In this document: in pieces, positions 15,751-27,158 of the stretch
How the letters are laid out: each line of letters starts with the position of its first letter
How positions within the stretch are numbered: the first letter of the stretch is position 1
Assembly (NCBI GenBank): GCA_041937175.2
Contig: CP166615.1
Coordinates: 3,648,001 to 3,712,000, forward strand
DNA length: 64,000 nucleotides
DNA from: Limnothrix sp. BL-A-16
GTDB lineage: Bacteria; Cyanobacteriota; Cyanobacteriia; CACIAM-69d
Direction of reading: 5' to 3'
Translations under genes and position numbers: made by a program
Notes under the pieces: model-generated
Seen by the model: the letters and a program-made list of their open reading frames with translations, nothing else
Databases searched by the model: none
Told to the model about the DNA's origin: nothing

Positions 15751-16276
15751 AACCCGCCCCGTTCGTCAGATGTGCCGCACACCCACTTGCAACCCCATCT
15801 TTGCAACCCCCGCCGCCAGTGAATTAGCCAACAAAGCGAATCTCGCATAGGAGCCATGCAAAGTGCGCGAAACCAACCGTCAGAGGATGCCAACAGCCAC
15901 AACCGAGATCCATCAGGCCTTTGCGCGAATTGACCTTGCCCCTTGACCGATTCGCCAGCTCTAACGGGGTCATTTCACAGCCAGGAGCCAACATCGATTT
16001 TTGTTAAAGGTTTTGACCTTTTTTAAAGGAAACATTAAGGATTTCTGACGAAATTCTAGACAATTACCGTTTTTGATCGGGGCAATTTCAGTCTCTTATT
16101 CGCCAGACTAAGTTTTTATACCTAACCTTTGCAAAAAAGCACAAAACTCAGTAAATCCCCACACCACAAAACCCTGAGTTCCCAACAGCCCAGAAATCCA
16201 CCTTCATCACCCTCAGGCTTTAACAACACGGGAGTTTCCTTAATCCTTCGTTGCTCATGCCGAACATCCCTGAAGA

Positions 16277-16322
16277 AACTTAACAACTTGTAATGACCAA
16301 ACCCCTTTTTGCGTTGTATAAA
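16277..16322 (+). promoter_or_regulatory. cpcB promoter (HLR1/RpaB-like repeat on the reverse strand plus -10 TATAAA)
   Basis: TTAACAACTTGTAAT...CGTTGTATAAAG matches the layout recalled for cyanobacterial cpcB promoters; implies a ~300-nt 5' UTR. Confidence 0.6.
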
Positions 16323-16616
16323 GAAATAGCCGAGAGGTGTTTAACAAGCAAACGTTAGTCAACGCGCTACTGCTAGGGATTTTTTTCGGTTCTCATAAAA
16401 CTTGAAAAGTCTCTCAGATTTTGAGCCATGACTGCGGTTAATTTAACCGGCAGATTTGCCATGGCTACCCATTGAGATCCCCAATTTAAGCAAAGCGTTG
16501 CTGAACTAAGACGGAGCTGAAAAACCTTCTCGCACTGCGCTAGCAGGTGAAGGCAGCGAACTGAGTTGTCTACAGCGCAAAACCACAACCAACCTCGACA
16601 AACACCTATTCCTTAG

Positions 16617-17147
<531 letters not shown>

Positions 17148-17213
17148 TCGAAGCTGCCGTGAAGTCACTTAGAATTTCAATTTTCTTTTGACTTCAATCT
17201 CGTCTCGATTTAT

Positions 17214-17406
17214 CGGAAAACAGGGTTTAAAGCCCCGCCCTTTAGGGCGTTTTAGTCGATGGATGGCCGCTAGGCTAGCGGTTTCAGTCTGCGAAGCAGC
17301 CACAAGGCCCAAGAACCTTTCGAGGTGGAGTCGGGTGCTGTGACGTAGAAACCCAAATCGTGAGGTTTGGGAATCCCCGTTCGCTTGCGGCGGGTGAAGA
17401 TGTCAA
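17214..17406 (+). mobile_element. Non-autonomous IS200/IS605 (tnpB-type) miniature element with omegaRNA-like right end
   Basis: Left-end hairpin AAAGCCCCGCCCTTTAGGGCG after TTTAT; right end CCCAAATCGTGAGGTTTGGGAATCCCCG...CGGGTGAAGATGTCAA; degenerate tnpB tail (AARLAVSVCEAATRP); no TIR or TSD. Confidence 0.8.
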
Positions 17407-17440
17407 CAACGCTAACTTTAGAGACACCTAACACGGGACT

Positions 17441-17929
17441 ATGAAGACTCCGATCACCGAAGCTATCGCAGCTGCTGATTCGCAAGGTCGTTTCCTGAGC
17501 AACGCTGAACTGCAATCGGCTCGCGGTCGCTTCGAGCGCGCTCAAGCCAGCATGGAAGCTGCTCGCGCCCTGACCACCAAGGCTGACAGCCTGGTGAGCG
17601 CTGCTGTGCAAGCTGTGTACGGCAAGTTCCCCTACACGACCCAAATGAACGGCGCTAACTACGCCTCGACCCAAACCGGCAAGGACAAGTGCGCTCGTGA
17701 CGTGGGCTACTACCTGCGCATGATCACCTACTGCTTGGTTGCTGGTGGCACCGGCCCCATGGATGACTACCTCATCGCTGGTTTGGCTGAAATCAACAGC
17801 ACCTTCGAACTGTCCCCCAGCTGGTACGTTGAAGCTCTCAAGAGCATCAAGGCTAACCACGGTCTGAGCGGTCAAGCTGCTAACGAAGCAAACACCTACA
17901 TCGACTACGCTATCCAAGCCCTAAGCTAG
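17441..17929 (+). CDS. cpcA: C-phycocyanin alpha subunit
   Basis: [35 protein letters not shown]. Confidence 0.98.
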
Positions 17930-17938
17930 TTGATGCAA

Positions 17939-18030
17939 TCCCGGAAGAGTGTCCGAGCCGGTTGTGGCTGGTTTGCCCAGCAACGGTAACCTGGTTCAAT
18001 TGGTTGGCTCCTCTTCCGGGAGCTTTTTTG
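17939..18030 (+). terminator. Stem-loop after cpcA (partial terminator/mRNA stabiliser)
   Basis: TCCCGGAAGAG...CTCTTCCGGGA with a large loop, followed by a T-tract. Confidence 0.65.
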
Positions 18031-18067
18031 TAAGCCGTGCTTGCTGTGATTTTTGGGAGATTTGTTC

Positions 18068-18934
18068 ATGGCCGTTACTGTTGCTGCTTCGCGCCTGGGG
18101 ACGGCAGCTTATGCAGATGCTGCACCCGTTGAGCTGCGGGCCTATGCTTCGGCAGATGATGTTGAACTGGTGATCCGGGCGGTTTACCGTCAGGTACTGG
18201 GCAACGATTATGTGATGCAATCCCAGCGATTGGTTAGCTCTGAGTCGCTGCTGCGCAATCGTTCGATCACGGTGCAGGAATTTGTCCGCTCCGTGGCGAA
18301 GTCCGATCTATACAAAGAGAAGTTTTTGTATAACAACTTCCAAACTCGGACGATCGAGTTGAATCTGAAGCATCTGTTGGGTCGTGCGCCCTACGATGAG
18401 TCGGAAGTGATTGAACACCTCGATCGCTACCAAAACGAAGGCTTTGATGCTGATATCGATTCCTACATCGATTCCGCAGAATATCAAAACGCTTTTGGCG
18501 AAAATATTGTTCCCTACTACCGCGGTTTCGCGACCCAAACGGGTCAGAAGACCGTGGGCTTTACGCGTATGTTCCACCTGTACCGGGGCTATGCCAATAG
18601 CGATCGGGCACAGATTGAAGGAATCAGCCCGCGTCTAGCCACGGAGTTGGGACGCAATTCCGCTTCGGCCATTGTGGGCCCCTCGGGCAGCAACATTGGT
18701 TGGGCCTTCCGTAATTCGCAAGACCTGGGCCAAGGCAGCCTCACCCCCACCTCTTTTGGCCAAAGCCAAAGCGATCGCCTGTATCGCGTGGAAGCAACGG
18801 GCCTGTTGGGCGCTGGCTATCCGGCCGTGCGTCGCAGCAGCCGCACCTTCACGGTTCCCTACTCGCGGTTGTCGGATCAAATGCAAAAGATCCAACGCCA
18901 AGGCGGCAAAATCGCCAGCGTTACCCCTGTTTAG
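18068..18934 (+). CDS. cpcC: Phycocyanin rod linker polypeptide
   Basis: [31 protein letters not shown]...FG..IVPYYRG, C-terminal CpcD-like domain (QRQGGKIAS). Confidence 0.95.
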
Positions 18935-23708: not shown

Positions 23709-24281
23709 CTATCGGCCCCGGCTGATGGCTGGCTGCACCATGGACAGGGCCAATTCACTAAAGATCTCATCCACATTGCTGCCACTTTTGGCGGAAGTCC
23801 AATAGAGGGAGTAGGTCACGCCGGCCAGGAGGGTTTCCACCTGAAGCTGGAGATGATGTTTATGGGACTCGTCCATCAAATCGACTTTGTTGATGGCCAA
23901 AATCACGACACTGGTGGGCGAGACCGATCGCACCAAATTGGCATGGTCACGCAGATGACTCACCGTGTCGGGGCGGGTGGCATCGGCCACCACGATCGCC
24001 CCAGAGGATCCTTGAAGATAGCTGGGGGCAATTCGCTGAAACTTGGTTTGGCCCTCCACATCCCAAATCAGCAACTGCAATTCCATCGGCTCCGGCCGCT
24101 CAGCAGCCCGATCGAGGGACATCTCTGGCAGCGGCACGGGCACAATCTTCCGCGAAATCTTCACCCCAATGGTGGACAAGTAGCGATCGCTAAATTGCCG
24201 ATCCACAAATCGACGAATCAGGCTGGTTTTGCCAACTGCATAATCACCGACCAAACAAATTTTTTTTGAAAGGGTTTGCAT
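23709..24281 (-). CDS. Rab/Ras-like small GTPase (prokaryotic Rup type)
   Basis: G1 GDYAVGKTS, G2 STIGV, G3 WDVEGQ, G4 NKVD, G5 TSAK; no prenylation cysteine motif. Confidence 0.9.
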   Translation of the reverse strand: MQTLSKKICLVGDYAVGKTSLIRRFVDRQFSDRYLSTIGVKISRKIVPVPLPEMSLDRAAERPEPMELQLLIWDVEGQTKFQRIAPSYLQGSSGAIVVADATRPDTVSHLRDHANLVRSVSPTSVVILAINKVDLMDESHKHHLQLQVETLLAGVTYSLYWTSAKSGSNVDEIFSELALSMVQPAISRGR

Positions 24282-24704
24282 GGCTTTAGGGGGTTGGCAA
24301 ACGCACCGGCGACTGGGCCGATTGTAGAAGACAGGATGGAAACTGGCCTAAATTCAACGGCAAAACTCCCGATTTTCGGGCCCCCTGGCGATCGCTGATC
24401 AGCAATTCAGCGGTCAGGGTTTGCCGCTTGTGAACAGTTGATTAGCCCTCGCCCACCAAGCCTCTGCAACCCATCCATGGACTTGGGGGATTGTGGGGAA
24501 ATGATGGGGATTGTTCAAAGCAAGGCGATCGCCCTGCAGCGGCATTCCAGCCGGTTAATGATCCAAAGTTGACGATCCCAATCGGACGCATCAGGGGACT
24601 TGGGCCAGCCGGGTCAACCGGAGCAATCACCCATTAACCGTTGAGTAGGGGAAAAACATCGTAAACGGATTGGCTTCACGATGGATGGGGAATGGATCAG
24701 AAAT

Positions 24705-27158
24705 TTAAGGCGCTGGGATTGCTTCAAAGCGCACGCAACGACTCATCCATTCCCCATCGCCTTGGGTCACGTCTGGCGGAGGCCCAACCTGGGCGCTAGG
24801 CACTAACCGCTGGGCCGAAATGCCTCGGCTAATGAGGGCCGATCGCACCAATTGTGCTCGCTGCAAGGCCAGGGCCGACGCATTGGGTTCGGTGGGGGCG
24901 CTGTGACCCACCACGCGCAGGTTGAGATCCGGATAGCTTTGCAGGAATTGGCGAATGGGGTCGATTTTGCCAGCGATATCGATATCGACAAACCGATCGG
25001 CTCCTAACTCAAAGTACAACCGAACGGTCAGACTCGGAATCACAATTTGCAACGAATTGACGACACGGTTGGTGCCGGGCACTCGCTCAAAGGCCGCCGC
25101 GATCGCGCTGGCTTCGGCCCGGCTGCGGGCCGAGCCGGTGACGGTGACCGTTCCGCCGGATTGCGCATCAATGCTGTAGCTGGCGTTGACCACATTGCCA
25201 TCCCGGTTCAAGGTTTTGGCAATCCGCTGCACCTCAGCAGCAGCCAGAATGGGATCCGTGGGCAACTGCACAGCAATGATTTGATTTTTGGGGGGTGTGG
25301 CTTGCTGAAATCGTTTTGGATCGATCGCCCGATAGGTGTCGGTGGCCGTGCGTTCGGCCTGGAATCGCAGCCAAGGATAGGGAACTTTGCCCCGCAATCG
25401 CAGTTGATCGCCTTGTAAGTCAACGGAGAGGTTATACACCGCCAATTGGGGAGAGGTATTCAAGGCCCCTTGCACAGCCGCCAACAGGCTCCGGTTGCGC
25501 TGGTTTTGATAGTTCCACCAAATCCAAGGGGCCGCGATCGCCGCACTCAGCACCAAAATTAGCCCCGTCAAAGCCCAAGGAAACCCACCCCGCCGATTCA
25601 GGTACGAACGCTGTTGGATGGGGCGCACCAAGCCGGTCACGGCCGTGTGAACGGGGGCCGGCAGGGTGCGGGAGTCGCCATCAAAGGATTGCAGGGGGCG
25701 ATCGTACCGTTCCACCAACCGCTCCAGGGTCGATCGCAACTGGCGGTAAAACCCCTTGGAGGGTTGCCCTTTTACAATCACCGCTAAATAGCAGTAGCCG
25801 GCCACCTCCATGGCAATTTGCGAATCGTTGTACTGAATTTCGTGCAGTTCGGACACGTTGTCGCCTTGCACCATGCAATCATTCACGAAACTGCGAATGG
25901 CCGTGAGCATTCCCGCCAGCATGTCCCCTTCGAGGGGATCTTGGTCAGCGGATTGACATTCGCTCATCACCAGGCCCGAGGCCTTGTGAATCAAAAAAGC
26001 CGCCTGAACCCGATAGGGCATGGCTTCCCGCAAAATCAGCTCCGCTTCGGATACCCCTTGCACTTTGGCTCGCATCTTGCGGCTTACCCCTTCCATGCTC
26101 AGGGTGTTATGCACCTTTTCGTTGATGGATTCGATCGCGTCTTTCATGTACTTGGCGATCGTATTGCCAATGACGGGATAGAGCGCATCCACCATGGCAT
26201 CCCGTTCTAGGGCAATTTGCTCTTTAATCGAAGCGCCCATCATCGGCCCGAGAGCTTGAATCATCGAGTCCGAATCAAGCTGGTATTGCTCCCGCATGGC
26301 GGAGGCGGTTTCGGGAGCAATTGCATGGGCGATCGCCAGGGCCAAATCAGCGGGCGCATCCTGCATTCGCTGCACGATCGCCGCATCCAGCACCGGGGCG
26401 ATCGCCTCGGCCATGGCTTGTCGATCCTGAAGCGATCGCTCGTAAATCAGGCGATCGATCGTGGGCAACAGGGCTTGGCAAATTTCTTCGCGGGCATCCA
26501 GCACCCGCCGTTCAATCAACCGGGCAATCAGGGGCGACAGGTGCGCCACCAGTTGATCGGCATTTTGCAGCAGGGACTCAATCGCATCCACCTGCTGCTG
26601 AACCCGTTGCATTTTGCCGCGCAGGGCTTCCACCCGATCTTCCACGCGGACAAAGTTGTCACCAATCAACAGGGACTGCAACTGCTCCCAGGCATCTTCC
26701 CCCGAGCTGCCGCTACCTTCGGAGGGTGCGCCGTTGCCGTTGGCCCCGTTAGCCGCTTTTGGGGTGGCGGTGTCTGGCCCCGATCGCTCGGCTAGGGGCG
26801 ATCGACCCGTCGCGGGCAAAGGCGGGGTCAACAAATCCGGATCGGCCCCAAACGGATTGATCGGTGGCTGATTACGGTCTGCCAAGTTGTCTGCCAAATT
26901 TTCTGCCAAATCGGCTGCTAAGTCGGCGGCCAAGTCGGCTTCTACCAAGATCGAGCGAGATCCTGTTAAGTCGGATCCCGCTCGATCTTGAGGTGTTTCA
27001 TCAGGAGCCGCGAGACGACTCGCCACCGAACCTTGGGGTTGCGGGGCGATCGAACTGGGCGGCCGCTCCGTGGGCGACTGAGACGATCGGCCCAACTGAC
27101 TCAGCAGATCTAGCCAATCCTCCACCGGCTCCGACTCGGAATGATTGCGATCGGGCAT
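24705..27158 (-). CDS. Multidomain membrane protein: disordered N-terminus, helical region, longin/roadblock-like domain, TM, BON-like domains, OmpA-like C-terminus
   Basis: AFLIHKASGL...LAGMLTAIRSF (longin-like), TM WALTGLILVLSAAIAAPW, LRVVGH...LALQRAQLVRSALISRGI...RCVRF (OmpA-like). Confidence 0.75.
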   Translation of the reverse strand: MPDRNHSESEPVEDWLDLLSQLGRSSQSPTERPPSSIAPQPQGSVASRLAAPDETPQDRAGSDLTGSRSILVEADLAADLAADLAENLADNLADRNQPPINPFGADPDLLTPPLPATGRSPLAERSGPDTATPKAANGANGNGAPSEGSGSSGEDAWEQLQSLLIGDNFVRVEDRVEALRGKMQRVQQQVDAIESLLQNADQLVAHLSPLIARLIERRVLDAREEICQALLPTIDRLIYERSLQDRQAMAEAIAPVLDAAIVQRMQDAPADLALAIAHAIAPETASAMREQYQLDSDSMIQALGPMMGASIKEQIALERDAMVDALYPVIGNTIAKYMKDAIESINEKVHNTLSMEGVSRKMRAKVQGVSEAELILREAMPYRVQAAFLIHKASGLVMSECQSADQDPLEGDMLAGMLTAIRSFVNDCMVQGDNVSELHEIQYNDSQIAMEVAGYCYLAVIVKGQPSKGFYRQLRSTLERLVERYDRPLQSFDGDSRTLPAPVHTAVTGLVRPIQQRSYLNRRGGFPWALTGLILVLSAAIAAPWIWWNYQNQRNRSLLAAVQGALNTSPQLAVYNLSVDLQGDQLRLRGKVPYPWLRFQAERTATDTYRAIDPKRFQQATPPKNQIIAVQLPTDPILAAAEVQRIAKTLNRDGNVVNASYSIDAQSGGTVTVTGSARSRAEASAIAAAFERVPGTNRVVNSLQIVIPSLTVRLYFELGADRFVDIDIAGKIDPIRQFLQSYPDLNLRVVGHSAPTEPNASALALQRAQLVRSALISRGISAQRLVPSAQVGPPPDVTQGDGEWMSRCVRFEAIPAP

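Follow-up and report, generated by a model that had tools for sequence, protein, structure and literature searches.

Introduction

Palindrome-associated transposable elements (PATEs) were defined in Haloquadratum walsbyi, where they are described as carrying subterminal palindromes, having no terminal inverted repeats and no transposase, and producing no target duplication (PMC3119063). A PATE-like element of 271 nt from Halanaerobium hydrogeniformans is laid out as left end, last part of tnpB and right end (PMC7290912). PATEs often encode omegaRNAs that need the TnpB of other IS elements in trans, as described for ISGst elements of Geobacillus stearothermophilus (PMC10055086), and PATEs carrying omegaRNAs dependent on TnpB in trans had thus already been published (Meers 2023). 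The element described here lies between the phycocyanin genes cpcB and cpcA of Limnothrix sp. BL-A-16, within a window of 64,000 nucleotides (contig CP166615.1, positions 3,648,001 to 3,712,000), by which we mean the whole stretch of DNA analysed. It shares with the H. walsbyi PATEs the subterminal palindromes and the absence of terminal inverted repeats, target duplication and transposase, and with the H. hydrogeniformans element the order of its parts. Unlike those PATEs, it is cyanobacterial, has TTAT as its target, lies in a core photosynthesis operon and occupies one site in three species-level genomes.

Three further systems invite comparison. Stand-alone omegaRNAs of the OMEGA class resemble the element in being mobilised, in having no effector or transposase of their own and in taking their guide from flanking host DNA; their function in trans was demonstrated with a compatible effector encoded in the same genome, whereas no such effector was found here (PMC10691335). 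The G. stearothermophilus genome likewise holds cognate TnpB/IscB and TnpA, while neither turned up in the present host, whose copy of the scaffold is eroded (PMC10055086). In ISDra2 the TnpB omegaRNA scaffold overlaps the tnpB 3' end, as it does here, and right-end positions -5 to -3 pair with an upstream triplet at -105 to -103, the corresponding triplet here being at -101 to -99; ISDra2 belongs to another family with a TTGAT rather than a TTAT target, and the helices of the present scaffold are predictions drawn from covariation, not a solved structure (PMC10097598). In TldR repressors, too, a transposon-derived scaffold stands beside host sequence, but the present locus has no adjacent nuclease-dead gene, no such gene among five TnpBs and no TAM-flanked promoter target (10.1101/2023.11.30.569447).

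The lack of a target duplication, the subterminal palindromes, a length (193 bp) that leaves no room for a transposase gene, the related copies at further sites and the filled/empty polymorphism mark this element, judged from its sequence, as a PATE carrying an omegaRNA-type scaffold, which is a kind of element already known. In its present state it represents that class cleanly, with exact boundaries; the cpcBA setting, the natural pair of filled and empty alleles and the mosaic spacer are of modest added value, and they make the question of homing testable. A literature search that covered few subscription journals returned no report of such an insertion in a cpcBA spacer and no paper on the spread of a protein-free omegaRNA by TnpB in trans in cyanobacteria. 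Our reading of the locus, which we consider likely, is that of an old insertion of a pre-formed PATE of ~190 bp that is now passive, stranded and drifting between cpcB and cpcA.

Results and discussion

A precisely bounded insertion in the cpcB-cpcA spacer

The open reading frame of 172 amino acids at positions 16629-17147 (+ strand, as are all features of the locus described below) is presumably cpcB, encoding the phycocyanin beta subunit, a name taken from family knowledge and from a first-pass annotation of this DNA; the alpha gene follows its homologues across cyanobacteria. The phycocyanin alpha subunit gene cpcA (162 amino acids) occupies 17441-17929, leaving a spacer of 293 bp between the end of cpcB at 17147 and the start of cpcA at 17441. 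This length and the sequence motifs named in the first-pass annotation were all found in place. Spacers were compared at 30 loci obtained from a search of 41 genomes, among them the genome of the window (G000) and two congeners (G001 and G002). The spacer is 293 bp in G002 and 291 bp in G001, and the other 27 beta-alpha spacers span 42-199 bp.

Metagenome contigs were scanned by pattern with the cpcA leader, and four of the 42 hits proved to be phycocyanin loci. One (L090) is a filled allele that differs little from the window, one (L067) has a 73-bp spacer of another genus, and two (L075 and L095) are empty: in both, TTTAT is joined straight to CAACG, TTAT occurs once, and there is no target-site duplication. 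The other-genus spacer (G003, 73 bp) did not align at this junction, and the spacers of L111 and L113, which duplicate those of G002 and G001, were counted once. Because two empty alleles show the exact junction, the element can be placed at exactly 17214-17406, or 193 bp. Within the host genus the spacer is thus 291-293 bp when filled, against 83-89 bp when empty. An empty TTTAT|CAACG site in relatives had been predicted from the window alone, and L075 and L095 bear this out; the predicted target word stands as the location of the junction, but the target of the family is the tetranucleotide TTAT and not TTTAT.

The native 5' part of the spacer (17148-17213, 66 bp), delimited by aligning filled and empty alleles, includes ~17 extra bases that are common to the filled alleles and missing in L075 (~12 are missing in L095). 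These correspond to a duplication-like insertion of ~17 bp at 17175-17209, in which the word CTTCAAT is repeated; it lies just 5' of the target and marks every filled allele. The possibility that L075 is a product of precise excision was considered and rejected, as the filled alleles have in common, upstream of the junction, five substitutions as well as the extra bases, and this allele has none of these.

The target TTAT, which is host DNA and would serve as the TAM if an RNA were used, lies at 17210-17213 and is present as a single copy in the empty alleles. The element that follows (17214-17406) is a gene-less derivative of the PATE type from the IS200/IS605 group (IS1341-type tnpB family), as delimited by the filled and empty alleles and by its length. 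Its left end contains the DNA guide AAAG at element positions +16 to +19 (17229-17232) and a subterminal hairpin at 17236-17249 with a 5-bp stem, followed by a T-rich run that makes it terminator-like. The remainder, from 17266 to 17406, is an omegaRNA-type scaffold made up of the old tnpB 3' end and the right end, assigned by a covariance model score of 93.3 bits and the covarying structure of the family. A reading frame that opens at 17266 as AARLAVSVCEAATRP reaches a stop after 25 codons and is a remnant of the tnpB frame. Within the scaffold, direct folding gives a GNRA-capped hairpin, CCCAAA...TTTGGG, at 17352-17371 (-11.2 kcal/mol). The right end (17371-17406) consists of the DNA guide GAAT, a subterminal hairpin at 17374-17400 and the terminal TCAA, a layout that matches family right ends. 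The last bases of the element are GATGTCAA, ending at 17406, and its two termini are non-complementary, so that there are no terminal inverted repeats. Directly beyond, the would-be 16-nt guide (17407-17422) is host sequence from the cpcA leader and runs into TTTAGAGA, a motif ahead of cpcA that is conserved among the spacers of the family. The 5' strand of a putative pseudoknot, GGC at 17306-17308, was positioned by analogy with the ISDra2 structure (PMC10097598).

Family, target rule and mode of insertion

The congener G001 has an intact tnpB (L049), and positions 17264-17382 align with its 3' end at 76% identity (E 3e-16). This gene encodes 391 amino acids, matches Pfam OrfB_IS605 and NCBIfam guided_TnpB, and has no tnpA between the ends of its element. 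A search of 151 genomes of the class recovered the cognate tnpB family in 21 at E<=1e-100, with no matches in G000 or G002. The ends are of the IS200/IS605 type, with insertion 3' of TTAT, GAAT ahead of the right hairpin and a terminal TCAA. The first-pass annotation had proposed an IS200/IS605 element that lacks a gene, retains an omegaRNA-like scaffold and lies in the sense direction of the operon, and the left hairpin, the tnpB 3' end, the TCAA terminus and the empty alleles all agree with it; its expectation of related copies and of a full-length tnpB member was likewise borne out, by copies in G000, G002 and G003 and by the full-length member in G001.

Pairing between the left-end DNA guide and the target is a rule of IS608, and its application to this family was checked here by a table of 34 left ends alone. 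The correspondences GAAA/TCAT, AAAA/TTAT, AAAG/TTAC and CAAG/TGAC held in 27 of the 34. By this rule the AAAG of the window copy predicts TTAC, which mismatches the actual TTAT site in G000 and G002, and the AACA of the G001 copy fits TTAT. The pairing principle itself is stated in PMC6006769. The left end of the window copy closely resembles those of the TTAT-branch members L100, L102 and L143, and the element appears to derive from the TTAT-targeting branch of this cyanobacterial family of tnpB-only (IS1341-type) elements.

The insertion 3' of TTAT left no scar; a Y1 TnpA supplied in trans would have carried it out, with the mini-element as single-stranded DNA. The insertion was presumably tolerated because the 34-bp cpcA leader, that is, the sequence between the landing site and the cpcA start, was left intact.

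Three near-identical intact tnpB genes at 1042.5k, 3504.5k and 3988.6k of contig C1 of G000 (L001-L003) have ends unlike TCAA-type right ends, and we take these ends to be IS607-like. A short relic at C1 589.5k, common to G002, consists of a left end of the L001-L003 type fused to a TCAA-type right end.

A pre-formed mini-element or deletion in place

Two histories would give a gene-less element at this site. The first-pass annotation had assumed that the interior of tnpB was deleted in place, that is, that a full-length tnpB element inserted between cpcB and cpcA and lost its interior there. PATEs arising by internal deletion are described in PMC3119063, and no sibling more than 80% identical to the window copy was seen at other sites, the nearest being 69-75% identical. 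Copies with a common layout nevertheless occur at other sites, namely at C1:287.5k (195 bp) and C1:1441.1k (with a degraded left end) in G000, in G002 and in G003, a member of another genus. All have the left hairpin, a linker of 15-16 nt and the scaffold beginning at the same base, with 69-75% identity to the window copy, and the same breakpoint and linker recurring at other sites and in another genus count against loss in place, as does the absence of any longer-insert allele among three genomes, one filled metagenome locus and four runs. Deletion in place is therefore improbable. Since a family of ~190-bp mini-elements occurs at other sites, the element probably arrived already gene-less, as a mini-element of about this size.

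The genome of the window gave at least 16 hits to the family model, 11 of the 16 without an intact tnpB; this is a lower bound, as 150 of 1015 candidates were scored in the genome-wide search. G002 holds further minis with different breakpoints. For a PATE of another family, the site is empty in G002 and yet a 99% identical copy lies elsewhere in that genome, so that PATE-type elements have moved recently in this genus. When five PATE sites of G000 were checked, the cpcBA site alone was also filled in G001; two of the other four are common to G002, and in G001 no filled version of these four was seen, one of them lacking synteny there. That the cpcBA site stands apart in this way counts against a mere passenger.

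Independent minis of two tnpB families were noted in G000 (C1 2102.6k-2102.9k, 3639.8k-3640.0k, 3909.0k and 1228.9k) and in G002 (L045, L047 and L050). Their breakpoints lie just 5' of the omegaRNA scaffold, as though this part were kept preferentially, a pattern that is biased by the use of the scaffold as the query for minis; the relics at C1 1071.5k, 2848.8k and 3587.4k keep less.

The omegaRNA-type scaffold and its wear

The likeness to an omegaRNA scaffold first noticed by eye holds under a covariance model built from the family, which scores 17266-17406 at 93.3 bits (E 1.4e-22), the next hit in the 1.5-kb region reaching 7.5 bits. An Rfam scan of 16000-18500 returned no relevant family, and single-sequence folding gave a modest z of -1.97 against shuffles. 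The model alignment comprised 31 tnpB-linked ends: 33 of 34 such ends were used, L122 not having been captured, and two of the 33 (L131 and L135) were dropped from the alignment as indel outliers. The consensus structure comprises 28 predicted pairs, 16 of which show double changes across these 31 ends, and 96.6% of cells are paired in the family alignment, as opposed to 37-51% in slid controls.

Measured against its family, the scaffold of the window copy is worn. It scores 93.3 bits and the G002 copy 90.1 bits, against 118.5 bits for G001 and 143-154 bits for the best family copies. Near-invariant positions are changed at 12 of 59 in the window copy, 11 of 59 in G002 and 4 of 59 in G001, whereas the 33 tnpB-linked ends have a median of one such change (range 0-8, with one outlier at 21). 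The putative pseudoknot triplet of the family is GAC in 33 of 33 ends and can pair with the terminal GTC; being invariant, it has no support from covariation. In the G002 copy this triplet is AGC, so that one pseudoknot pair is lost, and P2 has lost a pair as well. In G000 a G-U pair would still allow the GGC at 17306-17308 to join the GTC at 17402-17404, and all core pairs can form (P0 6/6, P1 5/5, P2 5/5, pseudoknot 3/3), three of them as new G-U pairs, which counts against a scaffold adrift. The nearly intact scaffold of G001, in a genome that holds the family TnpB, counts in turn against regarding the element as a passive passenger.

Rates of change were compared with those of the flanking genes. 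For G000 versus G001, differences occupy 26 of 191 element positions, 32 of 173 four-fold sites of cpcB and cpcA (p=0.25) and 5 of 100 positions of the native spacer (p=0.03); the corresponding values between G000 and G002 are 7 of 193, 6 of 186 and 1 of 100. Near-invariant columns are not significantly spared between G000 and G001 (8 of 58 versus 18 of 81, p=0.27), and a faster change on the G000 branch was not significant (16 versus 9 derived changes, p=0.23). These neutrality tests have low power, and four-fold sites are not an ideal neutral reference in a gene expressed at a high level. The values show no sign of purifying selection and fit a scaffold that would be drifting roughly as fast as synonymous sites.

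The 3' end of an intact TnpB gene elsewhere in G000 (L004, C1 673230-673389) is without the GAC triplet at the position of the putative pseudoknot. Three gene-less siblings of L004 (C1 2102.9k, 3909.1k and 1228.9k) keep it.

Partner proteins and guide targets

G000 holds five intact TnpBs (L001-L005), the best of which is 45% identical to the cognate family and, by the guide rule, belongs to an element that targets TGAC. The RNA ends of these five resident TnpBs score 28-44 bits on the family model, compared with 143-154 bits for the best family copies. A cognate full-length parent was sought in G000 and only tails of 32-33 codons were found, at two sibling minis. A TldR in G000 was also considered and rejected, as all five TnpBs keep the RuvC I, II and III acidic residues (D-E-D triad); the search used the zinc-finger profile PF07282 and tblastn, which a very distant truncated TldR could escape. 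The search for a Y1 TnpA gave one PF01797 hit in G000, scoring 56 bits as a REP-associated tyrosine transposase versus 22 bits as an IS200 TnpA, both below cut-off, and the hits in G001 and G002 look similar by inspection (REP-associated type).

The 16-nt would-be guide is single-copy in G000 and identical in the filled alleles and the empty L075. With six TAMs tried, no TAM-flanked target in G000 had a contiguous seed match of more than 8 nt, and no promoter target was found; the empty junction would thus be the only target of this guide. The first-pass annotation had envisaged an abundant working guide for a TnpB or TldR supplied in trans, and for a resident protein of this kind the idea finds no support, given TnpBs at no more than 45% identity, ends of 28-44 bits, intact triads and an eroding scaffold. 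Since neither a cognate TnpB nor a clear TnpA was found and the left guide misfits the target, the element would now be stranded and inactive in G000.

The gene of the Y1/REP-type transposase (L006, C1 1720028-1723369) adjoins further ORFs. Two of these resemble, and we take them to be, genes for a prenyltransferase of the cyanobactin pathway and a subtilisin-type protease.

Spacer ancestry, recombination and homing

The element is present at the cpcBA site in all three congeneric genomes (G000, G001 and G002), and the ancestry of the spacer differs from that of the genes on either side. Of the informative flanking sites, 23 group the filled G001 with the empty L075, three group G000 with G001 and three show the third pattern. 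In the spacer, all five informative sites and the ~17 shared extra bases group G000 with G001 (p=0.0003 versus the flanks). Since this ancestry conflicts with that of cpcB and cpcA, a recombination tract over the spacer is needed, in either direction: homologous recombination has moved filled and empty spacer alleles from one lineage to another. Spacer length that depends on a transposon, with an ancestry that disagrees with cpcB and cpcA, means that spacer-based typing can mislead in this genus; a distortion of PC-IGS typing had been foreseen in the first-pass annotation, and the spacer is indeed longer and in conflict with its flanking genes.

A conflict of this kind, with the spacer grouping G000 and G001 and the flanks grouping G001 and L075, is also the tract that TnpB-guided homing would leave. 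In that case the scaffold, produced in abundance by the cpc promoter, would work, or would recently have worked, as a guide in trans, a family TnpB would cut empty TTAT|CAACG alleles, and repair from filled alleles would spread the spacer both inside a species and from one species to the next. The would-be guide is the same in filled alleles and in the empty L075, G001 combines an almost intact scaffold with an intact family TnpB, and the use of stand-alone omegaRNAs in trans is documented in PMC10691335 and PMC10055086. Against this stand several observations. A cognate-clade TnpB was not found in G000 or G002; the element of the G001 family TnpB has the guide GAAA, and its relatives target TCAT, not TTAT; the G000 and G001 elements are 13.6% apart, so that any transfer between those lineages is old; and five discordant sites lie inside cpcB. 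The exchange may also have run the other way, with an empty spacer passing into L075. We regard homing as unlikely. Because cpcB itself has five discordant sites, ordinary recombination would be sufficient to account for the spacer mosaic.

In its boldest form, homing would need no protein of the element's own: a guide driven by the cpcBA promoter, which is probably among the strongest of the cell, would direct the cutting of empty cpcBA spacers whenever a TTAT-branch TnpB passes through a lineage, and the element would drive its spacer from species to species. This version, too, we consider unlikely. If it were true, homing would have left its trace in the mosaic ancestry of the spacer, the wear seen in G000 and G002 would be its aftermath or an escape of the host from cutting in the cpcA leader, and the locus would offer a natural filled/empty pair on which the spread of omegaRNA elements by TnpB in trans could be tested.

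Among the gene products, CpcA of the window differs from those of G001 (L009), L075 and L095 at 13-16 of 162 residues, and CpcB at 5 of 172. The changes between the cpcA genes of G000 and G001 cluster at cpcA nt 127-236.

Transcripts and possible effects in cis

The locus is contained, as assembled contigs throughout, in 18 runs from 12 studies, 12 of the runs being recorded as RNA. In three RNA-library runs, from three studies, single contigs with 0-1 differences span the whole element and continue into cpcA. These contigs agree with read-through transcription, by which the element would be passively co-transcribed with cpcBA. In four of four runs there was no joint that skips 17214-17406; contigs drop rare variants, and absence is not shown by this result. 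No sigma-70-type promoter was found in or near the element (16300-18100). In run X2, two short contigs at 17347-17393 with depths of 1388 and 211 match the right-end hairpins with 4-5 differences, and beyond these their sequence is that of a family right end. Their likely source is not the cpcBA locus but a related element of some other organism, whose omegaRNA ends would be abundant.

A further possibility is exaptation of the element for a role in cis within the mRNA, its hairpins attenuating, stabilising or processing the cpcB-cpcA message. The presence of the element at the same site in 3/3 congeneric genomes speaks for such a role, as do the terminator-like left hairpin and T-run, which are kept in all filled alleles, and the pairing of the GNRA hairpin, which is maintained through the changes in G001. 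Yet close relatives have empty alleles, and the divergence of the element overall is not below the synonymous rate. The predicted accessibility of the cpcA leader hardly changes between the sequences with and without the element, the mean unpaired probability being 0.57 versus 0.60. Five terminator-like sites were found, the hairpin and T-run at 17236-17249 among them, versus 2.2 +/- 1.6 in shuffles, a count not far above chance; the 5-bp left-end stem is weak, and the T-rich run after the left hairpin is also found in full-length family members and may simply be inherited. A cis-acting role therefore seems to us quite improbable, and a passive insertion remains the preferred reading of the element.

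Elsewhere in the window, at 23709-27158, a small GTPase gene on the minus strand is divergent from the gene for an 817-aa protein. From their translations we take the former to be Ras-like and the latter to have an OmpA-like C-terminus.
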